DNA from: a virus
Taxonomy: Duplodnaviria > Heunggongvirae > Uroviricota > Caudoviricetes
Reading direction: 5' to 3' (one strand)
IMG/VR virus record: IMGVR_UViG_2687453449_000006
DNA: 22,611 nt
Shown here: positions 3,260-22,611 of the stretch, one piece after another
How positions within the stretch are numbered: the stretch's first letter is position 1
How the letters are laid out: each line of letters opens with the position of its first letter
Notes under the pieces: generated by a model
Databases searched by the model: none
Told to the model about the DNA's origin: nothing
Seen by the model: only the letters and a program-made list of their open reading frames with translations
Made by a program: the position numbers and the translations under genes

Positions 3260-5601
3260 TTAATACTCTCCCCCATTTGCGCATCAGTTAATTCTTTATG
3301 CCAGATACGCAGATTACGGATATGACCAAAAAGATGATACTCCCCATTAGTGCCCTGCCCTCCAATTCGCAATACTGCCCGTGGAACAATTGAAGTCCAT
3401 GTTGTTTTTGCCGCAACAGATAATTCACCATTACATACGGCCTGAACATCTCCATCAGCGCCACAACGGAAGCCTGAAATGATTTTCCTCTGGGTTGTTG
3501 CCACATATTTATTACACCCTCCCATAGAAATAAAAGGAGAACCGGCATCAGAGAAATTATTACCACGGAATCCATGCGTGAACAGACCATTTTCCTGATA
3601 ATCTTTAACATTAAAGATTAATGGTGATTTGCTGGGAGGGATATCCCAGTTTTTATTAACTTCAACAAGAGCACTGAATGGTAATCGGTGAATATTGTTT
3701 CTTACAGGTATTGTCACCATGTCGCTGGAGCGAGTGCCAGGAGCCCCTTCAGTAATGATAAATGACGTCCTGTACGACCCAATCTCCGCCTGAGGCATCG
3801 CAATATCTAACGTAGAGCCATTGGGGATAATACTGATTCCAGGCATCGCCAGGATTTCAAATCTTGAGCTGATTATCATTTCCGCATCTGCAAAAAGAGT
3901 GGCGGTAAACAACCACCATTCACCGACTCTTTCTGCCGTCACCGTCACATTATTTCCATGAACAACATTTCCCGTAACAGGATCCAGAACTGCATCTGAA
4001 TGAAAAACAAACGCACCATTATCAGACATTTTTCCGAACCTTGCACGACACCGGGAATTATCACTTTTCGTCAGACACGATATCGTCGTATAAGAACCTG
4101 CCGGGCAGGTGTAAGCATCATTCGTGTTTACAGCAATTGCCTGATATCCTTGTGCTGTCGGATTTTCATTAATAACAGTTATCCTTCCATAGTTAAACCC
4201 CTTATCACTGTCGAACGACTCAACAGACACACTACCCGTGTTATTCCATGCTTCTGGTGTATTTGAATTTCTGAAATAGTTTGTTCTCTGTCCTTCAATC
4301 AGCAAACCTTCTCGTTCAAATCGCGGTTCGTCAACTTCAGCAACGGTTAATACACCTGATTTATTAATGTATGTTGCACCTGATGCGCGTTTGAAGCTAA
4401 CAACCTTATCGGATGGCATTTTAATAACATCATCACCTACGGTTATTTGCTTATAACCAGGCGAAAAGCCAGCAAGCATATCCAGTGAATCGTTAAACGG
4501 TATCCACACATCAGGCAGTGGCTGTAAGACATATTTATACGGCTCTGCTGCCTGGCTTGCATACTCTCTGGCTGCATCCTCACTTGCTTTAGCTGCTGTC
4601 TGGCTTGCTGCCGATGCTTGCGCCGAGTTCGCCGCTGCAGTCTCGCTTGTCTTTGCATTGGTTTCACTGGTTTTTGCAGCTTTTTGACTGTTTGCTGATG
4701 CAGTGGCAGAAGCAGCCGCCGCACTTGCAGAACCAGCTGCAGCACTCTCGCTTTCGGCTGCTGCATCCTGACTGCTTTTCGCCGCAGTTTCGCTGGCTTT
4801 GGCATTTGTTTCGCTGGTCTTCGCTGCCGTCTGGCTGGACTTTGCGTTAGTTTCGCTCGTCTTCGCTGCTTTCTGGCTGTTAGCCGCAGCAGTTGCTGAT
4901 CCAGCTGCTGCAGTCGCAGAACCGGCTGCCGCGCTCTCGCTTTCGGCTGCTGCATTCTGGCTATTTTTCGCCGCAGTTTCACTGGCTTTGGCATTCGTTT
5001 CGCTGGTTTTCGCTGCCGTCTGGCTGGACTTTGCGTTGGTTTCGCTCGTCTTTGCGGCTGTCTCGCTGTTTTTCGCGTTGGTTTCTGATTTTTTGGCTGC
5101 TGTCGCGGAGTTTGCCGATGCAGTCTGCGAGGACGCTGCCGCCTGTGCGCTGTTAGCTGCATTCGTTTCTGAGGTTTTCGCCGCGTTCTTCGATGATGCC
5201 GCTGCAGTTTCGGATTTCTTTGCCGCCGCTGCGCTCTGAGAGGCGGCTTCGGCGTTGCGTGCCGCTTCTTCCACCATTGCCTCAAAACGACGCAATGCCT
5301 CCGGCATGACATCATCTTCCGTCATGGCACCGAGAAAATCATTCAGCGTACCTGGTCTGGAACCTTCATAGACGGTAATGGTTCCGGCATGTGAAGGCGG
5401 AAAACCTTCAACCAGCAGGGTGACGCTGTACTGGCCATGCTCAACATCCATGCTGTAACGCCCGGCTTCATCCGGATTTTCAGAGGCCACCGTGTTCACC
5501 AGTACCGTGGTGCTGTTACGCTTTGCCTTCAGTTGAATAGTGCAGTTCTGTATTGGTTTTCCCGCACCATCTTTCAGCACACCTGAAATCTGTACTGCCA
5601 T
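3256..5601 (-). CDS. stf: Side tail fiber protein, lambda Stf-like N-terminus, Ala/Ser/Thr-rich repetitive shaft, LamG/lectin-like C-terminal domain
   Basis: N-terminus MAVQISGVLKDGAGKPIQNCTIQLKAKRNSTTV...GRYSMDVEHGQYSV...FPPSHAGTITVYE matches lambda Stf as recalled; true ATG at 5601-5599 with SD GGAGTG (the track's M at 5607 is a GTG). C-terminal ...LRIGGQGTNGEYHLFGHIRNLRIWHKELTDAQM is typical of LamG-like jelly-roll domains. Confidence 0.85.
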   Translation of the reverse strand: MAVQISGVLKDGAGKPIQNCTIQLKAKRNSTTVLVNTVASENPDEAGRYSMDVEHGQYSVTLLVEGFPPSHAGTITVYEGSRPGTLNDFLGAMTEDDVMPEALRRFEAMVEEAARNAEAASQSAAAAKKSETAAASSKNAAKTSETNAANSAQAAASSQTASANSATAAKKSETNAKNSETAAKTSETNAKSSQTAAKTSETNAKASETAAKNSQNAAAESESAAAGSATAAAGSATAAANSQKAAKTSETNAKSSQTAAKTSETNAKASETAAKSSQDAAAESESAAAGSASAAAASATASANSQKAAKTSETNAKTSETAAANSAQASAASQTAAKASEDAAREYASQAAEPYKYVLQPLPDVWIPFNDSLDMLAGFSPGYKQITVGDDVIKMPSDKVVSFKRASGATYINKSGVLTVAEVDEPRFEREGLLIEGQRTNYFRNSNTPEAWNNTGSVSVESFDSDKGFNYGRITVINENPTAQGYQAIAVNTNDAYTCPAGSYTTISCLTKSDNSRCRARFGKMSDNGAFVFHSDAVLDPVTGNVVHGNNVTVTAERVGEWWLFTATLFADAEMIISSRFEILAMPGISIIPNGSTLDIAMPQAEIGSYRTSFIITEGAPGTRSSDMVTIPVRNNIHRLPFSALVEVNKNWDIPPSKSPLIFNVKDYQENGLFTHGFRGNNFSDAGSPFISMGGCNKYVATTQRKIISGFRCGADGDVQAVCNGELSVAAKTTWTSIVPRAVLRIGGQGTNGEYHLFGHIRNLRIWHKELTDAQMGESIK
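4560..5260 (-). repeat. In-frame tandem repeats inside stf (189-bp / 63-codon unit, about 2.5 copies, with 42-bp sub-repeats)
   Basis: The motif ctctcgctttcggctgctgca occurs at 4745 and 4934 (offset 189 bp) and the surrounding ~105 nt are near-identical; protein repeats AAKTSETNAKSSQTAAKTSETNAKASETAAK...AAAESESAAAGSA. Confidence 0.8.
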
Positions 5602-5659
5602 ATTCACTCCACAAATAAAAAAGGCGCCATTTCTGGCGCCCGTATCTGGGTTATAAAAT

Positions 5660-8506
5660 TCAGCTAATCATGATGCCTGCAGTGGCTTTCTTCATCACCA
5701 CAACCAGCAAATCGCTGATACTTGCTGTGGGATACCAGCCATTTACCAGCCATGCCGATACAGAAAATTCCAGTGTCATTACACCACTGCCTGCAGGCAT
5801 ATCAATAACACCCGTATATATCAGCGTATTATCCAGAGCCGTTCGGTTATAAATTTCAGCACCGTTTTTTCGTACTATCAGACGGCATGAGGAGTAGATA
5901 TCAGTATGATCTTGCTCATGTTTAGCGCCACTGAATGCCACCGCCGGAATAACAATTTGCCGGTCAAACGGCTGATCGTCATAAACCCTGACGGTAATGG
6001 TCCCTGATGGCCACCGCTCCGGTGCACGGGAGTCCCGGGGGAAAGCTTTGCCCACTGTTTTAACGAGATCGCCTTCAATCTGGTTCGCGGACAGTTTTCC
6101 CAGAACCCGGCAGTTCTCGTTAATCGTGACGTTGTTGAGCGTCCCGGAGTTCGCATTCACGTTACCGCTAATATCGGCATTTTTCGCCGTCAGCCGCCCG
6201 TCCGGTGTCAGGGAAAATGCCGGAGGATTACCGCCGCTGGTAATGGTGGGAGCCGTCAGATATTTCAGGAACACTTCGTTCATGAATATCTGATCGCCCT
6301 GACCAACAAACATCGGCTTTGTGTTGCCATTCGCAGGATTAATCATCGCAATCCTGTCCGCCGCCAGCAGCACCTGACTCTGCATACCGTCAGGGGTATT
6401 CTCAATACCGGCACCAATACCCGCGATATAAAGGCGTCCGTCCTGCATCTGCTGCAGCTTCACAGCCCACATGCTGTTCAGGTTATTATTTGTATCAACC
6501 TGAACCTTCTGTATCTGCTGGATTGCCGCACTCTGGTCTTCCAGTTTCTTATTGACGGTCTGCGTGATTTCATTACTGACATCCGTGATGGACGTTCTGA
6601 TTTCCGCCAGGTCAGGCGCAAGCTGACCGTTATCAATCTGCGTCCACAACTCCTGAGCCAGATGGGTTTTCCCTATCTCTCCTTTGAAAAAATTCAGATA
6701 GCCGGATGCATCATCACTCGGCTGGCCAACAGCCTCCACGAATGCCGATTTGCCAACGGTGTTCACACTGCGGATGTAAAAATAATAATCATGGCCCGGT
6801 TTGATATTGATACTGGCGGCTATCCAGTACAGCGCCGTGCCAAGATAGCGTGCTGTGGTTTCAACCTGCCTGATATCCGCAATCCGCTTTTCCGAGAACC
6901 AGAACTCAAACTGTACCGTCGGATCATAAACCGCAAGATGCGGCGTGGCGGTTATCTGAAAATACCCCGGTGTCAGCTCAATCTGCGACGGCGCTGCCGG
7001 TGCGGCAATCCGGAACGATACCGACGCCGGCTCGCCCTGCTGCCCCCACGCATTTACTGCCCGGACTGTCAGCCTGTAGTTCCCCAGAGCCAGTTGTGTG
7101 AAGCGGTAAGTGGTTTCCGTCGTCCGGGCCGTGCTGACCAGTCGCTCACGGCCGTCATCCGCTGCCACGGTCAGGCGAAGCAGGAAGCTCACGCCCTTCA
7201 CCACCTTCGGCGTATCCCAGCGGGCCAGCACCTGGTATTCCCCGCTGTCTGCGGTGACTTCTGCGGTCAGGTGCTGCACCGCTGGCGGCGTGACACCATT
7301 TACCGTGCCGCTCTGGTCGCCGTCAAAGTGCGCCCCGTTATCCACGATGGCCTCTTTTTCCGGTACATGCTGCACGGCGGTGATGGCATACGTGCCGTCG
7401 TCGTTCTCACGGATACTCACGCAGCGGAACAGGCGCTGGCGCAACGTCGGCAGCTTCAGCCCCCATACGCTGTATTCAGCAACGCCGTCAGGAACACGGC
7501 TCACTTTCACCTTCACGCCGTCGGTGACGGACTGAACCTCCACGCTGACCGGACTCCCCTGCCCGTCAACCAGGCTTATCAGCGTGGTGCCGGAAGATGG
7601 CAGCGTGATTTCACGGTCGAGCGTCAGCGTCCGGGTCTGGCTGTTTACCGCCAGCACGCGCCCGCCGGTGCGGATACCGGCATAGTCATCATCGCAGATT
7701 TCAATGACATCGCCCGGTACATGGCGAAGCCCTTCGGCACCCACGCTGAAGTCCACGGTCTGCGTTTCCAGCAGCTCCGTTTTAATCAGCCACAGCCCGG
7801 CGCGGTGTGCCTGCCCCCGGCTGGTACAGCCAAAGGCATCCATCTTCGTGACGTTACGACCGTAACGGAGAATGGCCTGCGTATCTTCAACAAGCTCTGT
7901 CGCCGTCTCCCAGCCGTTATTCGGGTCAATCCAGTTCACCTCAACGGCATTATGGCGGTCCTTCAGGGCGCTGAAGCTGTAGCGGAACGGCGCGCCATCA
8001 TCCGGCATCACCACATTACTGCGGTTATAGGTCCACACCTTATCTGATGGTCGGTCCTGCACGAACGTCAGCGTCTGCCCGTTCCATACCGGCATACAGC
8101 GCATCGCCGAGCAGAAATCACTGAGCACATCCCACGCCTTACGCTGCGTGGTCAGGTAGGCATTACAGGTGATGCGCGGCTCCGTGCCGCCAAAACCGTC
8201 CGGCACTGACTGGTCGCAGTACTGGCCGATGACATACAGCGCCCATTTATCCACATCCGCCGCACCAAGACGTTTCCCCATGCCGTAGCGCGGGTGGGTC
8301 AGCATATCCCACAGACACCAGGCCGGGTTGTTGCTGTATGCCGGCTTAAACGTTCCGTCCCAGATACCGCTGTATTGCCGCGTCTGCGGGTTATAGTTCG
8401 ACGGCACCTGCAGAATGCGCCCGCGAAGATGATAATTACGGCTCACCTGCTGGCTGCCGAACTGCTCCGAGTCCACCTGCACGCCGACCAGTGCCGTGTT
8501 CGGGTA
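5660..8506 (-). pseudogene. J: Tail tip / host specificity protein J, N-terminally truncated (C-terminal ~948 codons retained)
   Basis: Translation (..[41 protein letters not shown]... to ...[14 protein letters not shown]...) is collinear with lambda J as recalled. The frame is closed by a stop at 8507-8509 and has no in-frame ATG at its 5' end (first codon in the track is a GTG at 8482). Confidence 0.85.
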
Positions 8507-10279: not shown

Positions 10280-10741
10280 CTATCTGCACTGCTCATTAAT
10301 ATACTTCTGGGTTCCTTCCAGTTGTTTTTGCATAGTGATCAGCCTCTCTCTGAGGGTGAAATAATCCCGTTCAGCGGTGTCTGCCAGTCGGGGGGAGGCT
10401 GCATTATCCACGCCGGAGGCGGTGGTGGCTTCACGCACTGACTGACAGACTGCTTTGATGTGCAACCGACGACGACCAGCGGCAACATCATCACGCAGAG
10501 CATCATTTTCAGCTTTCGCATTAGCTAACTCCTTCGTGTATTTTTCATCCAGTGCAGCAACATCACGCTGGCGCATCTGCATGTCAGTAATTGCCGCGTT
10601 CGCCAGCTTCAGTTCTCTGGCATTTTTGTCGCGCTGGGCTTTGTAGGTAATGGCGTTATCACGGTAATGATTAACAGCCCATGACAGGCAGACGATGATG
10701 CAGATAACCAGAGCGGAGATAATCGCGGTTACTCTGTTCAT
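10280..10741 (-). CDS. rzpD: Rz i-spanin (153 aa)
   Basis: True ATG at 10741-10739 overlapping the endolysin stop (ATGA); N-terminal TM segment, coiled-coil, C-terminal ...YINEQCR; the track's M at 10753 is a GTG. Confidence 0.88.
10339..10521 (-). CDS. rzoD: Rz1 o-spanin lipoprotein embedded in the +1 frame of Rz (60 aa)
   Basis: ATG at 10521; lipobox LVVVGC and proline-rich stretch [15 protein letters not shown]; entirely nested inside rzpD. Confidence 0.85.
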
Positions 10742-11235
10742 TGCTGACCCCACAAACAGATTTCACGCTCAATCTCACGACGAGTCATGAGACCTTTCCA
10801 TTGCTTACCGCCAGCATATGTCCAGCGACGTAGCTGATCACATGCGCCTTTGATATCGCCCTGGTTTATTTTGCGAAGAAGCGTCGATGTTCTGAAATTG
10901 CCAGCGCCCACGTTGTAAACGAACGAGTAAAGAGCGCCGCGCGTTGTTTCCGGTATATCAACTTTTATGTACGGGTTAATTTGTCTGGCGACCGTGGCAA
11001 GGTCTTTATTCAGGAGGGCTTTGCATTCTGCTTTGGTATACGTTTTACCGAGCATGATGTCTTTTCCTGTATGCCCGTGACATACAGTCCATACACCAAC
11101 AATATCTTTGTATGGTATGTAGCTGACACCTTCCAGACCATCGTTACCACTTGGGCCAGTGATTAACACTGATGCTATAGCAATTGCTCCGCCACCAATA
11201 GCAGCAGCAACGGCTTTTCGTAATGATGGAGGCAT
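10738..11235 (-). CDS. rrrD: SAR endolysin (phage 21 R-type lysozyme, 165 aa)
   Basis: ATG at 11235; N-terminal signal-arrest-release segment [20 protein letters not shown] followed by a lysozyme domain; matches R21/RrrD as recalled. Confidence 0.9.
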
Positions 11236-11450
11236 TATTCACCTCTCGCAGCCTTGCGCTTATCTTCTTTAATCTTGAAATAAAGGTTTGTCAGGTACGT
11301 CAGCAGGCCAAATACCAGGCTACCCAGCACACCTATTGCTGCCCACTGTGAGGGCGTGACTTTATCGAGCAGCTGTAAAAACCAGTAACCGGCACTACCT
11401 GCTGAGGTGCCATAGGCGACACCCGTTGTTAACTTATCCATGGATTTCAT
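11235..11450 (-). CDS. essD: Pinholin S21-type holin/antiholin with dual-start motif (71/68 aa)
   Basis: ATG at 11450 and a second ATG three codons later (MKSMDK...), two TM segments, charged C-terminus [13 protein letters not shown]; the track's longer 86-aa form begins at a TTG. Confidence 0.88.
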
Positions 11451-12038: not shown

Positions 12039-13121
12039 ATGAAAAAATTAACAGTGGCAATTTCTGCTGTAGCTGCATCAGTACTGATGGCGATGTCTGC
12101 TCAGGCAGCTGAAATTTATAATAAAGACAGTAACAAGCTGGATCTGTACGGGAAAGTTAATGCCAAGCACTACTTTTCCTCTAACGATGCAGATGATGGT
12201 GATACTACTTATGCCCGTCTTGGCTTCAAAGGTGAAACCCAAATCAACGATCAACTGACTGGTTTCGGTCAGTGGGAATATGAATTCAAAGGCAACCGCG
12301 CTGAATCTCAAGGTTCCTCCAAAGACAAAACCCGTCTTGCATTTGCAGGCCTGAAATTCGGTGACTACGGCTCAATCGATTACGGCCGTAACTACGGTGT
12401 AGCATACGACATCGGTGCGTGGACTGACGTTCTGCCAGAATTCGGTGGCGATACCTGGACCCAAACAGATGTGTTCATGACTGGTCGCACCACTGGTGTT
12501 GCAACCTATCGTAACAACGACTTCTTTGGTCTGGTCGATGGCCTGAACTTTGCTGCTCAGTATCAGGGTAAAAATGACCGCACTGACGTAACTGAAGCCA
12601 ATGGTGATGGTTTCGGTTTCTCCACTACTTATGAGTATGAAGGATTCGGCGTGGGTGCAACCTATGCTAAATCAGATCGCACTGACGGTCAGGTCGCCTA
12701 TGGTAAGAGCAAATTCAATGCCTCCGGCAAAAATGCGGAAGTATGGGCTGCAGGCCTGAAATATGATGCGAACAATATCTATCTGGCTACCACATATTCT
12801 GAAACTCAGAATATGACCGTTTTTGGTAATAACCATATTGCAAACAAAGCACAAAACTTTGAAGCAGTAGCACAATATCAGTTTGACTTCGGTCTGCGAC
12901 CATCTGTTGCTTACCTTCAGTCAAAAGGTAAAGACCTTGGTGTTCATGGTGACCGAGACTTAGTCAAGTATGTCGATGTCGGTGCTACTTACTACTTTAA
13001 TAAAAACATGTCCACTTTTGTTGATTACAAAATCAACTTAATTGACGATAGTAAGTTTACCAAAACAGCTGGTATTGATACCGACGACATCGTCGCTGTA
13101 GGTCTGGTGTATCAGTTCTAA
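12039..13121 (+). CDS. nmpC: Outer-membrane general porin NmpC (OmpC/OmpF family), apparently intact (360 aa)
   Basis: ATG at 12039; signal peptide [30 protein letters not shown]; porin signature with C-terminal ...VAVGLVYQF; uninterrupted 360-codon frame. Confidence 0.9.
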
Positions 13122-13310: not shown

Positions 13311-13694
13311 TTAATTAGAGTTATTAACAACGATATCCATCTCTAACCGGATATCTAATGCCATTAACATCCCTTCAATTATGCCCTCAGCCTTCTGTAA
13401 CCTTTTCCCGATATAACCATCAGAGCAGCAATGCTTACCTGCCAGTGACATGAATGTCATACCGACTACATAATAATCTACTAATAAATCATGCAAATCG
13501 CTGTTGTTCTTTTTCAGACGGGCCATGCACCCGCAAATGATCATCGCGTCATCGTCACAACATTGTGGGCGAGATTTTACTTTTGAAGGAATTAATCCCT
13601 TAAAACCGGCGGCAATGGACGACCAGGTCACATCTTCATGATTATTAGCCGCCCACGCTCCCCAACGCTCAAGAACCATCTGAATATCACGCAT
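13311..13694 (-). CDS. quuD: Late-gene antiterminator Q (127 aa)
   Basis: ATG at 13694 ([22 protein letters not shown]...); Cys-rich zinc-binding region [16 protein letters not shown]; the track's M at 13709 is a TTG. Confidence 0.85.
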
Positions 13695-15398: not shown

Positions 15399-16196
15399 TT
15401 ACTCTCTGGAAGCTTTTCTTATCTCTCTTGGTGTTATATTAAAACGATTATGAAATCTTTCAGTAAAACGAGAAGGACACTTATAACCATTTTCTCTGGC
15501 AATCTCGCTTATAGGTTTTACCGTCGTTTGTATAGCAGACAACGCATTATTTAACCTCACATCGTCCAGTATACTTTGGAAACTTACCCCCTCGCTTGCT
15601 AGACGGCGATGTAATGTAGAAACAGAAATGTAGAGATATCGAGCAACCTTGTTTGCTGTCCATTTTGTGCCGGGTTCGGATAGCAGCAGGTTATAACAAC
15701 GACTTATCAATGATTGTTTACTATATGATAAAAGTAAATGATTAACATGATTCACTCCTAACGAAAGTAGAACGCCCATTGCTAAGTGCTCCTGAATTTT
15801 AGTTGAGAAGCCTCGGGAAACAGATGTTTTTAGTTGCTCCCAACAATATATTAACTCAGGATTCTGAGGTAAAAAGAAACTTGTTTTGTTACGTATTTGA
15901 TCAGTTACCGTATAAAGTTTTTGGAAACTCTCAATTAAATCAATGGGTAAGTAAAGCATTTCTGCAAGATAAAGCCCTGCTTCAGGATAATTCTCAATAT
16001 AAAATTCATAACCACAAGGAAATAATATTATTTGATTATTATCAACAGTTAAAGTATGCGTCTCCCAATTGATAACTTTCTTTCCCTGACGGATACGACA
16101 CAAAGCTGGCATAAGAGGCTTAACCCTATGAATCTCATGATGTTTATGCATCCGTATTTCTTCGATCTTTAAGTTAGTCTTACCTCTTGCCAGCAT
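15399..16196 (-). CDS. ybcM: AraC-family transcriptional regulator YbcM (265 aa)
   Basis: ATG at 16196; C-terminal AraC HTH (...[42 protein letters not shown]...); AT-rich. Confidence 0.85.
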
Positions 16197-16205
16197 ACTC
16201 TCACC

Positions 16206-16757
16206 CTACTTTATCTCATAAACTGGTGTTATCTCAGCGGTTGCGATTTTATTAGCATTAAGCATATAACCAACTAACGCTCCGCTGGAGTTAGAATCTA
16301 CAGGAATCTTTTCAGTTTTTAGAGCCCATACTTTAAACTGGTAATGATGTGGTTTATCTCCTTTAGGAGGACATGCGCCACCAAACCCAGCATAGCCAAA
16401 ATCATTTCGGCCTTGAACAGCACCAGTCGGCAGTTTTGTTCCATCACGTCTCCCTGCATCAACGGGCAAATATGTTACTGTTGCTGGAATATTAACAACA
16501 GTCCAATGCCACCAACCACTGCCTGTAGGTGCATCTGGATCATATACAGTTACGGCAAAGCTTTTGGTACCTTCAGGAACACCAGACCAGGTTAATGAGG
16601 GCGATGTATTACCACCTTCACACCCAAATCCAGAAAAGACATGAGACGTTGTAAGTTGCTCTCCTGTTTTTATTTCATTACTAGTGACCTGAAATGCTGC
16701 AGCCTGCGCAGAAAATGTTATGAATGCCAATACAGTTGAAACGATAAGTGTTTTCAT
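16206..16757 (-). CDS. ybcL: Periplasmic PEBP/RKIP-family protein YbcL (183 aa)
   Basis: ATG at 16757; signal peptide MKTLIVSTVLAFITFSAQA; PEBP-like core (...YDPDAPTGSGWWHW...GFGGACPPKGDKPHHYQFKVWAL...). Confidence 0.85.
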   Translation of the reverse strand: MKTLIVSTVLAFITFSAQAAAFQVTSNEIKTGEQLTTSHVFSGFGCEGGNTSPSLTWSGVPEGTKSFAVTVYDPDAPTGSGWWHWTVVNIPATVTYLPVDAGRRDGTKLPTGAVQGRNDFGYAGFGGACPPKGDKPHHYQFKVWALKTEKIPVDSNSSGALVGYMLNANKIATAEITPVYEIK

Positions 16758-16974
16758 AAAAACCTCTTTGTTATGACCTATCGTTATTTTATTTGATATT
16801 CCTTTATCTCATTATGCATAAAGGCGCAATGTTCATGCAAAAGCAATCACAATTGTACCCCCAACCCAATTATTTGCCACAATATACACAAAGCACATTG
16901 ATACTATCTAAAAACTCTGCTTTATTATTAGTAATACCTACGAAAGTCGGTGTTATTTTTTAACCTACCATTCA

Positions 16975-17022
16975 AAATACGTGACATACACCATTTTGCT
17001 CATAATAATTTGTCACGTATTT
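16975..17022. promoter_or_regulatory. Perfect 12-bp inverted repeat with 24-bp spacer in the ybcK-ybcL intergenic region (candidate regulator or recombinase binding site)
   Basis: AAATACGTGACA (16975-16986) ... TGTCACGTATTT (17011-17022), about 220 bp upstream of the ybcL start and 200 bp downstream of the ybcK stop. Confidence 0.35.
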
Positions 17023-17221
17023 TCAGTATTTGAATCTGCGACCAAGAGTTCTCACCTAACAAATGATTAAGATTGTATAGCTCATTTACTACCCCAATAC
17101 AGCCGTACAAAACTCGCTTGTGGGAGCAAACAAAGTAATTACCCATTAAGTTTCGTTAAAGATAATTAATTCTGTCTTGCACTTTATCACCATAGCATAA
17201 CTTAAAATCCGAGATCATTAT

Positions 17222-18748
17222 TTAGAAATAAATCTCACCATCAACCATATATTTGAGAGCACTTATCGCCTGCTGGGCGGATATTACTTTCATTAAAGGA
17301 TAGTGTTTAAAAACAATGCCATTCATAAAATAGATATCACAGGTTTTATTATCCGTATTAATTATGATTTTTTCGAATGTTTTATAGGCAAGTGTACGGC
17401 ATAACTCTCGTCCATTTTTACTGGTTAAGTCAATAGCATAAAAATCACTGAATGAATTTACACCTTTACTCTTCAAAGTTTTCAATGATACCGAAGCCCT
17501 TCGTAATTCCTTATCTAATAGTCTTATTTTCTCTGCTATAGCGGTAACTTCAGGCGCGACAGACAATGCAACGATTAAATTATTAATTTTCATCTGAAGC
17601 TCAATAATTTTTAACTCTAAAGTTTCATTAGCATCTTTCTTGTTTTCAACTGGTTGAATTTTGCTACAATTAAAAAGCAATTCATTAATGATATTATAAT
17701 CAACCAAATCTCTTTTTATTGATGGCCTGTCACATCGATGTAATCTTCTCATCGGACAAACATAATAGCCATGCAAACTTCCAGATACCGCATGAACAAT
17801 CATGGTATTACCACAAGCCTCACACTTCATAACTGTTCGAAGTAGATTTATTAGCATAGGATTCTTGCTACTATTGCTAATACCAAAAGGTGCCAACCGA
17901 ATTTCCTGTACAGCGTAAAACAAATCATCTGATATGACTCTGGGATAATAGCCAGCGATTTCACTTATCCCTTTCCCTCTTGCACGATATGAAGGTACGC
18001 ATATACCTATCAGAGCTTTATTCGCTAATAATTTTTCAATTACAGAAGGTCCCCATGCACTTTCTTTTCCTGAGAAATTCTTTACAGCATGATCATTTAA
18101 ATACTTGGCTATTGCATTCAATGAGCGCCTTTCCATCCTGAGTTTAAAAATTAGCTCAATAGTTTTCACCCTGTCGGGGTCTGGAACAAAAGCCGTTCTT
18201 TTGTCATCTAAGGAGAGCCATCTCGGACAAGACGCCGTCATAATCGTACCTGATTCCAGTGCATCCTGCCGTTTTTTCTTCCATGATAATTTAACCCGAC
18301 TTGACTTTATCTCGCTTTCTTCATTTGCCCTTTGTGCTATAAGTATGGCTTTTATTAATGAATATGGCTCATTCAAAGAGTCAATATTATAGACTGTATT
18401 GTCGCAAAGAGTTATAACATCAATACCGTGATTCAAAATCAATTTCAGACGTTCAATCGCTTCACCGACTTTTTCTCTTGAAAGTCTGTCCAGACTTTCA
18501 ACTAACAATGTAGTTCCTGGCAATATATAACCATGCTCTATAGCATCTAAAAATTCCGAAAAAGCTCCTGATTGTGCATGCTTTCCTTTGAATGCACTTA
18601 ATCCTAAATCTTCATATGTTATGGTATCAAGATAATAATCACTATTTACCTTTAACCATTCAGCAATAAGTCTTCTCTGTCGGTTTAATGAGTCGCCAGA
18701 CATCTGACCTGGTGATGAAAATCGCATATATGCTATGGCTTTTTTCAT
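17222..18748 (-). CDS. ybcK: Large serine recombinase family protein YbcK (508 aa)
   Basis: ATG at 18748 with SD AGGTG; N-terminal resolvase-type catalytic motif AYMRFSSPGQ...R; central recombinase domain; Cys cluster CEACGNT...CPMRRLHRC (zinc ribbon); C-terminal coiled-coil region. Confidence 0.85.
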   Translation of the reverse strand: MKKAIAYMRFSSPGQMSGDSLNRQRRLIAEWLKVNSDYYLDTITYEDLGLSAFKGKHAQSGAFSEFLDAIEHGYILPGTTLLVESLDRLSREKVGEAIERLKLILNHGIDVITLCDNTVYNIDSLNEPYSLIKAILIAQRANEESEIKSSRVKLSWKKKRQDALESGTIMTASCPRWLSLDDKRTAFVPDPDRVKTIELIFKLRMERRSLNAIAKYLNDHAVKNFSGKESAWGPSVIEKLLANKALIGICVPSYRARGKGISEIAGYYPRVISDDLFYAVQEIRLAPFGISNSSKNPMLINLLRTVMKCEACGNTMIVHAVSGSLHGYYVCPMRRLHRCDRPSIKRDLVDYNIINELLFNCSKIQPVENKKDANETLELKIIELQMKINNLIVALSVAPEVTAIAEKIRLLDKELRRASVSLKTLKSKGVNSFSDFYAIDLTSKNGRELCRTLAYKTFEKIIINTDNKTCDIYFMNGIVFKHYPLMKVISAQQAISALKYMVDGEIYF

Positions 18749-18946
18749 GGTGACACCTGCTAACGTATGCTTTTATAAACCTTAGTGGTGGGATATAATT
18801 TTTGTTTAATTTTTATTTAAAAAGACAATTAAGGTCACATTATCTTGAATATACAACAATAATCGTATTGCAATTTTCTTACGCCATAATCTTGAAAGCA
18901 CAAAAGAATACATAAAAAATAAAGACATTAACAAAAAGCATAAAAC

Positions 18947-18975
18947 GAGGCTCATATAAATATAAGAGCCTCCAT
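18947..18975 (-). terminator. Rho-independent terminator downstream of emrE
   Basis: Minus strand reads GAGGCTC-ttatatttatat-GAGCCTC followed by GTTTTATGCTTTTTG (U-rich), about 30 nt after the emrE stop. Confidence 0.5.
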
Positions 18976-19002
18976 ATTTTAGTCGTTTAGAAACAAATTA
19001 TT

Positions 19003-19335
19003 TTAATGTGGTGTGCTTCGTGACAATAAATTAATAACCAACACACCGGCACAAATCAACATCATGCCTATAATGGCTGGCAGGTCCAGCCGTTGGCCGA
19101 AAAATCCCCATAACAGTAAGCTAATCAGGACAATACCGACTCCTGACCAGATACCATAAGCAATCCCTGTAGGAATATAAGCCAGCGTCTGAGCTAATAA
19201 CCAGAATGATGCACAATAACAAATAATTGTACCAACAGATGGCCATAACCGTGTAAAACCTTCTGAAAACTTCATTAAGGTTGTACCAATGACCTCTGCA
19301 AGTATTGCACCACCAAGATAAATATAAGGGTTCAT
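19003..19335 (-). CDS. emrE: SMR-family multidrug efflux transporter EmrE (110 aa)
   Basis: ATG at 19335 (MNPYIYLGGAILAEVIGTTLMKFSEGFTRLWPSV...); four TM helices with the conserved Glu14; the track's longer ORF begins at an upstream TTG. Confidence 0.9.
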   Translation of the reverse strand: MNPYIYLGGAILAEVIGTTLMKFSEGFTRLWPSVGTIICYCASFWLLAQTLAYIPTGIAYGIWSGVGIVLISLLLWGFFGQRLDLPAIIGMMLICAGVLVINLLSRSTPH

Positions 19336-19350
19336 AGCATATTCTTTCCT

Positions 19351-19386
19351 GTTCAAACTGGAGAGAATTGTACTACAGTTTGAACT
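19351..19386 (-). other. 10-bp perfect inverted repeat immediately upstream of the emrE ribosome-binding site
   Basis: GTTCAAACTG (19351-19360) ... CAGTTTGAAC (19377-19386) with a 16-nt spacer, in the 67-nt gap between ren and emrE. Confidence 0.35.
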
Positions 19387-19402
19387 CAACTCACCTGTTT
19401 CA

Positions 19403-19705
19403 TCATTGTGTTCCCATTGATGTTCTTTTATATACCCTCAGTACCCGTTTCATCGCGGCACTCTGGCGACACTCCTTAAAAATCAGATTCGTGCTCACCT
19501 TTCCTTCCCGTTCTTCTCTGGTAGCGAACCGGTAATACACCGTTCGCCAGACCTTACCATCAACGACCAGGATTCCTGCCCGCGCCATTTTAGCCGCAGC
19601 CTGATTTATGCTGGTTACGGTTGCACCTGTTACCGCGGCAACGTCCTGTGCACAGAAGCTCTTATGCGTCCCCAGGTAATGAATAATTGCCTCTTTGCCC
19701 GTCAT
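19403..19705 (-). CDS. renD: Ren-like protein (lambda Ren homolog, 100 aa)
   Basis: ATG at 19705; MTGKEAIIHYLGTHKSFCAQDVAAVTGATVTSINQAAAKMARAGILVVDGKVWRTVYYRFATREEREGK... matches lambda Ren as recalled; its start overlaps the end of the P fragment, as in lambda. Confidence 0.8.
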   Translation of the reverse strand: MTGKEAIIHYLGTHKSFCAQDVAAVTGATVTSINQAAAKMARAGILVVDGKVWRTVYYRFATREEREGKVSTNLIFKECRQSAAMKRVLRVYKRTSMGTQ

Positions 19706-19940
19706 ACACTTGATCCTTTCAGTCCGAACTTAGCTTTGATTTCTGCGATCTTCGCCAGAGCCTGTGCACGATTTAGAGGTCTACCGCCCATGACAGGAAG
19801 TTGTTTTACTGGTTCAGGTATCGCCTCACCACGGTTAATTCGCGCGGTCATACAGGACAGTTCATCGGCAGCCTTGCGCCGTAATTCCGCGTCAGTCAGC
19901 GCATTGGCCCGCATGTTCTGGTACAAGTTGGTAACCAACC
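19702..19940 (-). pseudogene. Replication protein P, C-terminal fragment only (~78 codons)
   Basis: ..TNLYQNMRANALTDAELRRKAADEL..TARINRGEAIPEPVKQLPVMGGRPLNRAQALAKIAEIKAKFGLKG..V matches the lambda P C-terminus as recalled; no ATG (the track start is a TTG); homology ends at about 19940. Confidence 0.75.
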
Positions 19941-19948
19941 AGTAAGCA

Positions 19949-20314
19949 ATGGGATATGCCTCTGGTTATGTCTGGTTGAATCCACCATACAGCAATATTT
20001 CCCCTTTTGTGAAAAAGGCAGCCACTGAAAACAAATTCAGCAGTGTGGGATGTGTAATGTTATTACCTGCTGACACATCTGTCGGATGGTTTCATGAAGC
20101 GATACAAACCGCCAGTGAGGTCAGATTCATCACGGCAGGACGACTGGCATTTATTAACCCACTCACCGGGAAACACGTCAGTGGAAATAATAAAGGCTCG
20201 ATGCTCATTATCTGGCACCCATACCCCCGTACACACTGCCACTTTACGACCGTTGATCGTGGAGAGTTGATGGCGTTCGGCTCAAGGATTCTTGCCCGTC
20301 GGGAGGCTGCATGA
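19949..20314 (+). pseudogene. Phage Dam-type DNA N6-adenine methyltransferase, C-terminal fragment (121 codons)
   Basis: GYVWLNPPYSNISPFVKKA... contains the (D/N)PPY catalytic motif at the extreme N-terminus of the frame, with an in-frame stop immediately upstream (19943-19945); the N-terminal AdoMet-binding region is missing. The frame begins with an ATG but is judged a 5'-truncated remnant. Confidence 0.55.
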
Positions 20315-20394
20315 CAACCACGGAATGCATTTTTCTGGCAGCGGGCTTCATATTCTGTGTGCTTATGCTTGCCGACATGGGACTTGTTCAATGA
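20311..20394 (+). CDS. Small hydrophobic peptide (27 aa), translationally coupled on both sides
   Basis: SD GGGAGG (20301-20306) then ATG at 20311, which overlaps the stop of the methyltransferase-fragment frame (ATGA); MTTTECIFLAAGFIFCVLMLADMGLVQ; its stop overlaps the next ATG (ATGA). Too short for the ORF track. Confidence 0.35.
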   Translation: MTTTECIFLAAGFIFCVLMLADMGLVQ

Positions 20395-20606
20395 CACCTC
20401 AGCAGGAAAACGCCCTTCGCAGCATAGCCCGTCAGGCTAATTCTGAAATCAAAAAAGCCAGACAGCAGTTTCCGGATAAAAACGTCGATGACATTTGCCG
20501 TAGCGTACTGAAGAAGCACCGCGAAACGGTAACGCTGATGGGATTCACACCGACTCATTTAAGCCTGGCGATCGGCATGTTAAACGGCGTCTTTAAGGAG
20601 CGATGA
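20391..20606 (+). CDS. Hypothetical protein (71 aa)
   Basis: ATG at 20391 (MTPQQENALRSIARQANSEIKKARQQFPDKNVDDICRSVLKKHRETVTLMGFTPTHLSLAIGMLNGVFKER); the track's longer version starts at a TTG at 20292. Confidence 0.5.
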   Translation: MTPQQENALRSIARQANSEIKKARQQFPDKNVDDICRSVLKKHRETVTLMGFTPTHLSLAIGMLNGVFKER

Positions 20607-20698
20607 ACATGAAAAGCAAAATCATCAGGGAGCTACAGGCTCCTTTTTTATTATTCGCATTCACCCTCAAGCGTATTAACCAACAATTCAGGGATTAA
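20603..20698 (+). CDS. Small ORF (31 aa) with a strong SD, translationally coupled to the upstream ORF
   Basis: TAAGGAG (20594-20600) then ATG at 20603 overlapping the upstream stop (ATGA); MNMKSKIIRELQAPFLLFAFTLKRINQQFRD. Confidence 0.35.
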   Translation: MNMKSKIIRELQAPFLLFAFTLKRINQQFRD

Positions 20699-20704
20699 TG
20701 GAAG

Positions 20705-20923
20705 ATGGCAGACATCATTGATTCAGCATCAGAAATCGAAGAATTACAGCGCAATACAGCAATAAAAATGCGTCGTCTGAACCACCAGGTTATATCTGCC
20801 ACTCATTGTTGTGAGTGTGGCGATCCCATAGATGAACGAAGACGCCTGGCCGTTCAGGGTTGTCGGACTTGTGCAAGCTGCCAGGAGGAGATCGAACTTA
20901 AGAACAAACAATGGGGATTGTGA
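20705..20923 (+). CDS. TraR/DksA-family C4 zinc-finger protein (72 aa)
   Basis: ATG at 20705; CxC-x17-CxxC (..SATHCCECGDPIDERRRLAVQGCRTCASCQEE..) characteristic of phage TraR-like proteins. Confidence 0.75.
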   Translation: MADIIDSASEIEELQRNTAIKMRRLNHQVISATHCCECGDPIDERRRLAVQGCRTCASCQEEIELKNKQWGL

Positions 20924-20970
20924 TGGCCTCAAAGCAGCAAATTTCAACATCGTCCAACTGAGGTGTAAAA

Positions 20971-21249
20971 ATGTTCAGAATCATTTTGCCTAACACCTGG
21001 TACGTCGACCACCACGGCACTCCCTGCAAAATCCTGCGTTCTACCCACAACAAAGTTCACTACATCCGAAAAGGCAGAACATGTATCGCCAGCATGTTCC
21101 GCTTTAATCATGACTTTGAACCTGTGAATAAAGCTGATGCAGATCGGATAGCAGAAGAGATCGAAACGGCAGAACACATTAAGAAGTTACGTGACATGCG
21201 TTCAAAAAGCAGAGGTAACCATGGAATCATACAGCCTCACACTCGATGA
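20971..21249 (+). CDS. Hypothetical protein (92 aa)
   Basis: ATG at 20971 preceded by GAGGTG; no recognisable motif; overlaps the start of the xis-like ORF by 29 nt. Confidence 0.5.
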   Translation: MFRIILPNTWYVDHHGTPCKILRSTHNKVHYIRKGRTCIASMFRFNHDFEPVNKADADRIAEEIETAEHIKKLRDMRSKSRGNHGIIQPHTR

Positions 21250-21592
21250 GGCCTGTCAGTTTCTTAAGATATCCAGACCAACCGCCACCAACTGGATACG
21301 AACAGGCCGCCTACAGGCAACACGTAAAGATCCAACCAAGCCAAAATCTCCTTACCTCACAACACGGCAAGCCTGCATTGCGGCGCTTCAGTCTCCGCTG
21401 CATACTGTCCAGGTGAGCGCGGGTGATGGCATAACAGAGGAAAGAAAATGTCACTCTTCCGCAGAAATGAAATATGGTATGCCTCGTATTCGCTCCCGGG
21501 CGGGAAACGAATTAAGGAATCTCTTGGCACAAAGGACAAGCGGCAAGCTCAGGAGTTGCACGACAAGCGAAAAGCAGAACTCTGGCGAGTAG
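21221..21592 (+). CDS. xisD: Excisionase-like HTH protein (Xis/AlpA family); 3' extent uncertain
   Basis: ATG at 21221 with SD GAGGT; N-terminal [29 protein letters not shown] typical of excisionase-family DNA-binding domains. The frame runs 124 codons and overlaps the int start by about 145 nt, which is long for an excisionase. Confidence 0.5.
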
Positions 21593-22611
21593 AAAAGCTA
21601 GGGGATTTACCTGATGTCACTTTTGAAGAGGCCTGCCTAAGATGGCTTGAGGAAAAAGCTGATAAAAAATCTCTCGATTCAGATAAAAGCCGGATTGAGT
21701 TCTGGCTTGAACATTTTGAGGGTATAAGGCTTAAAGATATCTCGGAGGCAAAGATTTACTCTGCTGTAAGCAGAATGCATAACAGAAAGACGAAAGAAAT
21801 ATGGAAACAGAAAGTTCAGGCCGCCATCAGGAAAGGTAAAGAACTGCCTGTTTATGAACCAAAGCCAGTACCAACTCAGACAAAGGCAAAGCATCTTGCC
21901 ATGATAAAGGCCATTCTCCGTGCTGCAGAACGCGACTGGAAGTGGCTGGAAAAAGCGCCTGTCATCAAGATACCAGCGGTCAGAAACAAGCGAGTCAGAT
22001 GGCTGGAAAAGGAGGAAGCAAAACGCCTTATTGATGAGTGCCCCGAACCACTGAAATCTGTCGTCAAGTTTGCGCTGGCAACTGGTCTGAGAAAGTCGAA
22101 CATCATAAATCTGGAATGGCAACAAATCGACATGCAGCGACGAGTTGCCTGGGTGAATCCAGAAGAGAGCAAATCAAACCGCGCCATTGGTGTGGCGCTG
22201 AACGATACCGCCTGTAAAGTGTTGCGTGATCAAATAGGCAAGCATCACAAATGGGTGTTTGTACATACCAAGGCGGCTAAGCGAGCAGATGGAACATCAA
22301 CGCCTGCGGTCAGGAAGATGCGCATCGACAGCAAGACATCATGGCTATCAGCTTGTCGTCGTGCAGGAATTGAAGATTTCCGTTTCCATGACCTCAGACA
22401 CACCTGGGCAAGCTGGCTGATTCAGTCAGGCGTCCCATTATCAGTGCTTCAGGAAATGGGCGGATGGGAGTCCATAGAAATGGTTCGTAGGTATGCTCAC
22501 CTTGCGCCTAATCATTTGACAGAGCATGCGAGGAAAATAGACGACATTTTTGGTGATAATGTCCCAAATATGTCCCACTCTGGAATTATGGAGGATATAA
22601 AGAAGGCGTAA
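21448..22611 (+). CDS. intD: Tyrosine-type site-specific integrase (387 aa), DLP12 IntD-like
   Basis: ATG at 21448 with SD AGAGGA; C-terminal catalytic region ...[42 protein letters not shown]... (R..HxxR..Y tyrosine-recombinase signature); the stop is at the window edge. Confidence 0.9.

Follow-up and report, generated by a model that had tools for sequence, protein, structure and literature searches.

Results

The window, that is, the whole stretch of 22,611 nucleotides that was analysed, is a complete DLP12 defective prophage, with appY (535-1284) towards one end and the intD stop codon (22611) at the other. Its sequence matches E. coli C (NZ_CP029371) at 100% identity; in that record the tRNA-Arg gene (argU) lies 15 bp past intD and ompT/envY lie beyond appY. 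Every aligned base of E. coli B REL606 is also identical, and the porin gene of REL606 contains an IS1 that is absent from the window. The element has the features of DLP12: integration at argU next to the tRNA-Arg gene with intD at one end and appY at the other, the characteristic gene set (PGAP names and Pfam), and a defective content in which the immunity/replication module, the head genes and the tail-shaft genes are absent. The PGAP annotation of the E. coli C record includes emrE, ybcK/L/M/N, ninE, ybcO, rusA, ylcG and quuD, followed by an nmpC-type porin, essD-rrrD-rzpD, iss/bor, ylcI, nohD, tail-fibre remnants and appY, with nohD forming a fusion with a truncated tail-tip gene. An Rfam scan of the entire window found no family that reached its gathering score. 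Ramisetty and Sudhakari (2019, PMC6379469) reported that 74% of 638 strains have DLP12 at argU. The features relevant to this analysis are the following.

19403..19705, minus strand: ren, intact, 100 aa, directly 3' of the P remnant (ORF; PGAP "protein ren", WP_000145915.1, E. coli C record)
19702..19945, minus strand: P', C-terminal remnant of a lambda-type replication protein P (Pfam, alignment, PGAP pseudogene)
19944..19945, no strand: deletion junction with a 2-bp AA microhomology (alignment to intact P and intact methylase)
19946..20314, plus strand: remnant of a Dam-type methylase, phage N6-adenine methyltransferase (Pfam, tblastn, alignment, PGAP pseudogene)
20391..20606, plus strand: orf61-like hypothetical gene of the early-left arm (PGAP, WP_000188870.1; also in intact prophages and PhiR30_1)
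20705..20923, plus strand: TraR/DksA zinc-finger gene of the early-left arm (Pfam PF01258; PGAP)
20971..21249, plus strand: DUF4222 gene of the early-left arm (Pfam PF13973; PGAP)
21221..21592, plus strand: xis-like HTH_17 ORF, open, 123 aa from the ATG at 21221 (Pfam PF12728; aligned with a 116-aa EC7 homologue)
21448..22611, plus strand: intD integrase; the window ends at its stop codon (ORF, annotation)
13311..13694, minus strand: quuD (Q antiterminator), full length (Pfam PF06530, positions 1-118 of 118, E=8.5e-54; PGAP)
10280..11450, minus strand: lysis cassette, with essD 11235-11450, rrrD 10738-11235 and rzpD 10280-10741 (Pfam, PGAP)

The xis-like ORF overlaps the start of intD, and PGAP marks only 21221-21286 of it, as a fragment. 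Q is full length, and the holin (PF04971), the lysozyme (PF00959) and Rz (PF03245) each covered their whole Pfam profile. These end-to-end matches bear out the proposal, made earlier from the nucleotide sequence, that Q and the lysis cassette are apparently intact. The early elements that feed Q, namely pR and, where present, N, belong in intact relatives to an interval that is wholly deleted here.

Two truncated genes meet at the junction. The minus-strand ORF at 19702-19938 matched PF06992 (lambda P) at profile positions 120-162 of 162 (E=1.2e-7), and the plus-strand ORF at 19949-20314 (121 aa) matched PF05869 (phage Dam) at positions 60-168 of 169 (E=4.9e-35) and has the catalytic (D/N)PPY motif, as NPPY, at residues 11-14. 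Nucleotide alignments gave 96-99% identity between 19702-19944 and the 3' ends of intact P genes, and 98-99% identity between the DNA from 19944 onwards and the 3' two thirds of one intact methylase gene of 558 bp; a tblastn comparison of the intact methylase with the window covered residues 64-185 at 99.2%. The junction was located to the base by aligning the window to intact P (O157 Xuzhou21 and EC7) and to the intact methylase (EC7). The P-derived DNA stops at ...CCAGT (19943), the AA at 19944-19945 is common to both parents, and the methylase-derived GCAATGGG begins at 19946; up to 19945, P' is 98.6% identical to the intact P of O157 Xuzhou21. The retained portions are P residues 154-233 (80 of the 233 codons) and methylase codons 64-185 of 185. 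P' has lost its native start and the O-binding N-terminal two thirds, and antisense methylase DNA lies upstream of it. The methylase has lost its native start, its N-terminal third and the first 59 profile positions; the ATG at 19949 corresponds to Met65, an internal residue of the 185-aa protein, a TAA at 19943-19945 closes the frame upstream, and antisense P DNA takes the place of the normal pL-driven operon. A sequence-only reading of this DNA had described C-terminal fragments of P and of a methyltransferase placed head-to-head. Both fragments are found where it had placed them, and its breakpoints (about 19940 and 19949) lie within 5 bp of the true junction. A search of the PDB by sequence with the full-length methylase, for a structure on which to map the motifs lost by truncation, returned no meaningful match.

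Neither an IS, a transposase gene, a terminal inverted repeat, a target duplication nor a flanking direct repeat was detected at the junction by repeat search and annotation. The 401-bp sequence that spans it is present with 100% identity in 35 of 5426 complete E. coli genomes, among them C, B REL606, other B derivatives, ATCC 11303, NCTC10537 and assorted isolates. Because the identical junction recurs in these 35 complete genomes, an assembly artefact was rejected. In RefSeq, PGAP labels both P' and the methylase remnant "incomplete; missing N-terminus", and on the strength of their sequences we regard the two as probably inert leftovers.

Relatives that have the same int arm and an intact early region show what lies between the two breakpoints. 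Their spacing is 6.9-7.4 kb: 6,856 bp in the argU prophage of strain 2016C-3878, 7,113 bp in EC7 (thrW prophage) and 7,424 bp in the live phage PhiR30_1 (PV340558), a complete 47-kb phage that is propagated on E. coli C and is 99.06% identical to window positions 19944-22611. The gene order is emrE-ren-P-O-YdaT-cro-like-S24 repressor...gam-bet-exo-DUF1317-methylase...intD-argU in 2016C-3878, and int, DUF4222, TraR, orf61, methylase, orf60a, exo, bet, gam, kil, cI, cro, cII, O, P, ren in PhiR30_1. Both share with the window the int-xis-DUF4222-TraR-orf61-methylase arm (99.06-99.25% identity over 19944-22611) as well as a ren-P and ybcO-rusA-ylcG-Q backbone of the same type, which in 2016C-3878 also includes emrE and ybcK. 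However, both keep the 6.9-7.4 kb missing from the window, including full P, O and cI. In the intact relatives this interval contains the P N-terminus, O, YdaT/cII, cro, cI, kil, gam, bet, exo and DUF1317, and also pL, pR and, where present, N.

The whole window was then compared by tblastn with 25 early proteins of three immunity types (P, O, YdaT, cII, cro, cI, N, ral, cIII, kil, gam, bet, exo, DUF1317 and methylase), and the only matches were P from about residue 152 to 233 and methylase residues 64-185. YbcM, of the AraC family (Pfam), and AppY are the only further proteins of regulator type in the element, and neither is a cI/Cro-type repressor. The earlier claim that the immunity/replication region is wholly absent is therefore upheld on both sides, since intact relatives hold it between the two breakpoints and the tblastn search of the window found no repressor, cro or O elsewhere in the element.

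The DLP12 prophage of E. coli K-12 is also integrated at argU. Its intD is 99.8% identical to that of the window, as are emrE-ybcK-ybcL-ybcM-ybcN-ninE-ybcO-rusA-ylcG-quuD and the lysis genes, and window positions 15876-19616 are 99.76% identical to K-12. K-12 likewise lacks the immunity/replication module and has a head-to-head scar on a C-terminal remnant of P, but the scar is a different one. In K-12, 312 bp of P remain, which exceeds the P remnant of the window by 68 bp, and they abut a 279-bp C-terminal remnant of exo. A second K-12 deletion extends from the start of DUF1317 to a point in the xis-like gene that corresponds to about window position 21349; the exo frame continues into the first bases of DUF1317, which are joined to that point. 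Consequently, K-12 lacks the methylase remnant and the orf61, TraR and DUF4222 genes, all four of which the window keeps, whereas the exo remnant and those 68 bp of P, both present in K-12, are missing from the window. Since each element retains DNA that the other lost, neither scar can have given rise to the other. In total, 315 genomes have the K-12-type scar, compared with 35 for the window type. The K-12 P'/exo' piece is 2-2.6% diverged from its counterpart in strain WP4-S18-ESBL-08, while the K-12 flanks are 0.24% diverged; this divergence, about ten times that of the flanks, points to lambdoid mosaicism. The suggestion that K-12 might represent another decay path was correct. The earlier reading had also placed an IS3 and exonuclease and P pseudogenes at the K-12 locus. 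The exo and P remnants are present there, and IS3 sits inside ren and not at the junction; ren is intact in the window.

Other relatives were sought with two chimeric queries. One of them, an intact methylase N-terminus joined to window 19944-21800 (into intD), matched about 225 genomes that have an intact methylase beside a DLP12-type int. Four genomes have an arm at least 99.7% identical to that of the window, and all four are scarred, with none retaining an intact early region. WP4-S18-ESBL-08 and EC6563 have the arrangement ren-P' (447 bp)/gam' (114 bp)-bet-exo-DUF1317-intact 185-aa methylase, a scar present in only 2 genomes; TUM9803 has P' (606 bp)/bet' (204 bp) and a different nin region; and the scar of FG92-1 is ybcO'/exo. 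The second query, the backbone of the window joined to intact P-O, showed that ybcK-emrE-ren-P-O is intact in 978 genomes, the best of them only 99.1% identical.

WP4-S18-ESBL-08 and the window are nearly identical in element and host, share most protein accessions, and have both lost the immunity region. Over 18.9 kb the prophages show 4 mismatches and 1 gap (0.02%), and over 17.6 kb of chromosomal flank WP4-S18-ESBL-08 and E. coli C show 5 mismatches (0.03%). The window lacks a 2,103-bp segment of WP4-S18-ESBL-08 (L005 18199-20301), while WP4-S18-ESBL-08 lacks a 3,349-bp tail-gene segment (window 5156-8504); there are no further structural differences. B and C, with 0-1 mismatch, are nearer to each other than either is to WP4-S18-ESBL-08, and the B/C scar was for this reason placed after the split from that strain. 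No strain that branches between WP4-S18-ESBL-08 and B/C was found. The P' (606 bp)/bet' scar of TUM9803, a strain whose host flank differs by 0.12%, cannot nest with the P' (447 bp)/gam' scar of WP4-S18-ESBL-08. Because these two scars are non-nested in near-identical hosts, independent losses of the module do occur.

Consensus promoter and terminator scans of the junction and of the region from the lysis genes to ren gave counts at or below the shuffled expectation. The argument on transcription given below rests for this reason on the lambda paradigm and on the K-12 literature.

Discussion

The results taken together make us highly confident that the junction at 19944-19945 is a deletion scar, that the element lacks the immunity/replication module, and that the two flanking gene remnants are inert. 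All the DNA from P codon 153 to methylase codon 63 has been lost, including O and the origin, pR, pL and any N. The scar probably arose by illegitimate recombination at the AA microhomology within DLP12, in the form of this prophage that is carried by E. coli B, C and their relatives.

How many events produced the scar is a separate question. The sequence-only reading had taken the arrangement as the signature of one deletion; the deletion scar stands, and the single event is not established, since WP4-S18-ESBL-08 has an enclosing P' (447 bp)/gam' scar. We lean slightly towards a two-step course, in which the present B/C junction would be of second generation, on the basis of the sequence comparison with that strain. 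The ancestor shared with WP4-S18-ESBL-08 would already have had the P' (447 bp)/gam' scar and lost the immunity region, and the B/C lineage would then have deleted another 2,103 bp across it. We infer this order of events from the comparison; by event count, the one-step and two-step courses are equally parsimonious. Somewhat short of an even chance, and still quite plausible, is a single deletion of about 7 kb from a repressor-proficient DLP12-type prophage, independent of the scars of other strains. The breakpoints map cleanly on intact relatives, 6.9-7.4 kb apart and with one 2-bp microhomology; intact sources are common, as judged from the 978 genomes with ybcK-emrE-ren, full P and O; and the non-nested P' (606 bp)/bet' and P' (447 bp)/gam' scars are known independent single losses in close relatives. 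Nevertheless, the closest relative found already bears an immunity-less scar that encloses that of B/C, so that a one-step origin would need two separate immunity deletions within 0.02-0.03% divergence, and none of the four genomes with a left arm at least 99.7% identical is intact. The mosaicism of lambdoid prophages adds that recombination may blur descent.

That same mosaicism raises the possibility that another defective lambdoid prophage supplied the scar ready-made, through homologous recombination. Exchanges of this kind are suggested by TUM9803, whose left arm is 99.9% identical to that of the window and yet is accompanied by another nin region and a P' of only 92% identity, and by the central P'/exo' piece of K-12 with its tenfold flank divergence. 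For the junction studied here we consider an import very unlikely. The annotation shows the same P' and methylase remnants at all 35 occurrences, and the two that were inspected, C and B REL606, are DLP12 at argU; on both sides of the junction the similarity to WP4-S18-ESBL-08 equals that found elsewhere in the prophage and in the chromosome, with no local jump in divergence; and the junction occurs in none of 50,697 phage records and at no other locus. Still less probable is an adjacent deletion made by an IS that was lost later, an idea that would follow the analogy with the IS3 of K-12. Insertion sequences are indeed active around this locus, as shown by the IS3 in K-12 ren, the IS1 in the REL606 porin gene and IS3-family insertions in other argU prophages, but there is no IS, terminal inverted repeat or target duplication at or near 19944, the parents are joined directly with only AA in common, and clean loss of an IS is rare. 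The base-exact junction effectively refuted an IS-mediated deletion. Finally, the 121-aa frame at 19949 might be a complete functional small protein, either a minimal methylase or a member of another family, as it is open, starts with an ATG and keeps the catalytic NPPY. The sequence comparisons make this the least credible of the proposals. The frame aligns colinearly with residues 65-185 of a 185-aa protein (99% identity) that occurs in hundreds of genomes and in a live phage; its Pfam match starts only at profile position 60 of 169; upstream of it are antisense P DNA and an in-frame TAA; and its normal promoter, pL, is deleted. The earlier reading had named a complete protein of a different family at 19949 as a finding that would count against it, and the comparison instead returned a truncated PF05869 methylase.

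With the deletion reading preferred, the state of the late genes can be considered. In the lambdoid scheme, Q is transcribed from pR through the terminators of the nin region only with N antitermination, and transcripts from pR' reach the lysis genes only with Q. Extrapolating from this scheme, we infer that after the joint loss of pR and N, Q would be expressed at most at a trickle and pR' transcripts would end at tR'. Loss of the repressor would be harmless because the promoters under its control were deleted too. Late-gene silence without a repressor had been presented as a puzzle; it ceases to be one with pL, pR and N deleted together and with the cassette of K-12 being regulated. Literature on K-12 agrees with this picture: rusA, which shares its strand with quuD and lies two genes upstream of it, is described as "normally quiescent", with activation when IS2 or IS10 inserts upstream (PMC1636454), and essD-rrrD-rzpD show regulated expression under Q, RpoE and Hha and influence vesiculation and biofilm (PMC7918800). 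By analogy, the lysis cassette of the window would be no time bomb, yet not strictly silent.

The finding is correct and also ordinary, as it is an instance of well-understood prophage decay: it belongs to the known decay of DLP12, and both remnants are already RefSeq pseudogenes. The absence of the immunity region from DLP12 has reportedly been known since the original description of this prophage. Among open papers, none was found that gives the B/C breakpoints or describes the set of alternative scars, and the exact breakpoints of the loss are now set for the DLP12 of E. coli B and C. A practical consequence is that "DLP12" gene lists are not interchangeable between K-12 and B/C because their decay paths differ. 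B and C keep the methylase remnant, orf61, the TraR-like gene, DUF4222 and an open xis-like frame, and K-12 keeps the exo remnant.

The argU prophage may have at least five head-to-head scars, namely P' (606 bp)/bet', P' (447 bp)/gam', P' (312 bp)/exo', P' (about 246 bp)/methylase' and ybcO'/exo. Four of these five types end inside P, and several are found in hosts whose flanks diverge by just 0.03-0.12%. Survivors of replicative killing by trapped lambda prophages are known from the lambda literature. We tentatively propose, while holding it to be less probable than its negation, that DLP12-type prophages were repeatedly and independently "grounded" by selection against in situ replication and lysis (replicative killing), with stepwise erosion afterwards. 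If repeated grounding is true, argU offers a natural time series of prophage domestication. The window resembles the "grounded" cryptic prophages described before (PMC6379469) in that the repressor/origin module is deleted while cargo (emrE, porin, bor/iss, appY) and the lysis cassette are kept. Its mechanism is no different from that of grounded cryptic prophages in general, and the window is one more case with breakpoints of its own. The occurrence of several scars at one locus in near-identical hosts is mildly useful for the study of prophage domestication, the principle being known. Erosion continues beside the scar, as BL21(DE3) has lost, relative to REL606 and the window, a further approximately 272 bp (19632-19903) that comprise the N-terminus of ren and all but 42 bp of P'.

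Deletion Scars at argU and Elsewhere

Two other argU prophages carry scars with different partners. In that of TUM9803 (L010, 8436-11286), a P remnant of 606 bp is joined to a bet remnant of 204 bp, and in that of FG92-1 (L011, 11202-11963), a ybcO remnant of 90 bp is joined to exo. Because the 90-bp ybcO remnant is common to both, the FG92-1 scar seems to derive from the TUM9803 form by a secondary deletion. Another scar was found at icd in O157:H7 Xuzhou21 (L004, 9604-13297), where a prophage with the order ybcK-emrE-ren-P has a truncated O gene directly adjoining a different xis/int pair. Loss of the immunity region beside an emrE-bearing nin region therefore also occurs outside argU.

BL21(DE3) (L009) and its relatives C41, C43, BLR and BL21-Gold have an extra deletion of about 272 bp (window 19632-19903), with a 2-bp overlap. 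The N-terminus of ren is lost with it, only 42 bp of the P remnant are left, and the methylase remnant is unaffected.

The P/methylase junction of the E. coli B and C type is also present in NZ_CP043852.1, which is labelled ATCC 8739. In the E. coli W genome paper (PMC3032704), however, Table 2 gives no element at argU for Crooks/ATCC 8739. The discrepancy must lie in the strain labels or in the assemblies.

A Second Scar at nohD

The late region of the window includes a second scar at 8503-8506, which joins the 3′ end of nohD to an N-terminally truncated tail-tip (J-like) gene. In WP4-S18-ESBL-08 (L005), the closest relative, the nohD-side breakpoint lies 2-3 bp from that of the window, but the partner is the tail-fibre gene at window position 5155 (5155/5156; L005 6758/6759). 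An intact terminase A region continues from the same nohD point in FG92-1 (L011 5430) and TUM9803 (L010 2664). The nohD-side ends of two distinct deletions are no more than 3 bp apart, a coincidence whose cause may be a hotspot for breakage or a secondary deletion that only just removed the old scar.

Integration and Surface Genes

The following frame runs into the integrase gene:

21221-21592, xis-like HTH_17 frame, open, 123 codons

The frame and the start of intD share 145 bp, and the PGAP annotation has just a 66-bp fragment there, described as "missing C-terminus". Since the frame is open over its 123 codons and colinear with a 116-amino-acid homologue in EC7, a relative with a thrW prophage, the DLP12 element of the window may still encode an excisionase.

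One porin gene lies between quuD and essD:

12039-13121, opposite strand, nmpC-type porin gene, intact, 360 amino acids

In contrast to this copy, that of the E. coli B strain REL606 is interrupted by IS1, so the window cannot come from REL606; the K-12 gene is split by IS5. Within the gene for the tail-fibre N-terminus, a direct repeat of about 249 bp (4633-4881 and 4822-5070) has overlapping copies that are 84% identical.
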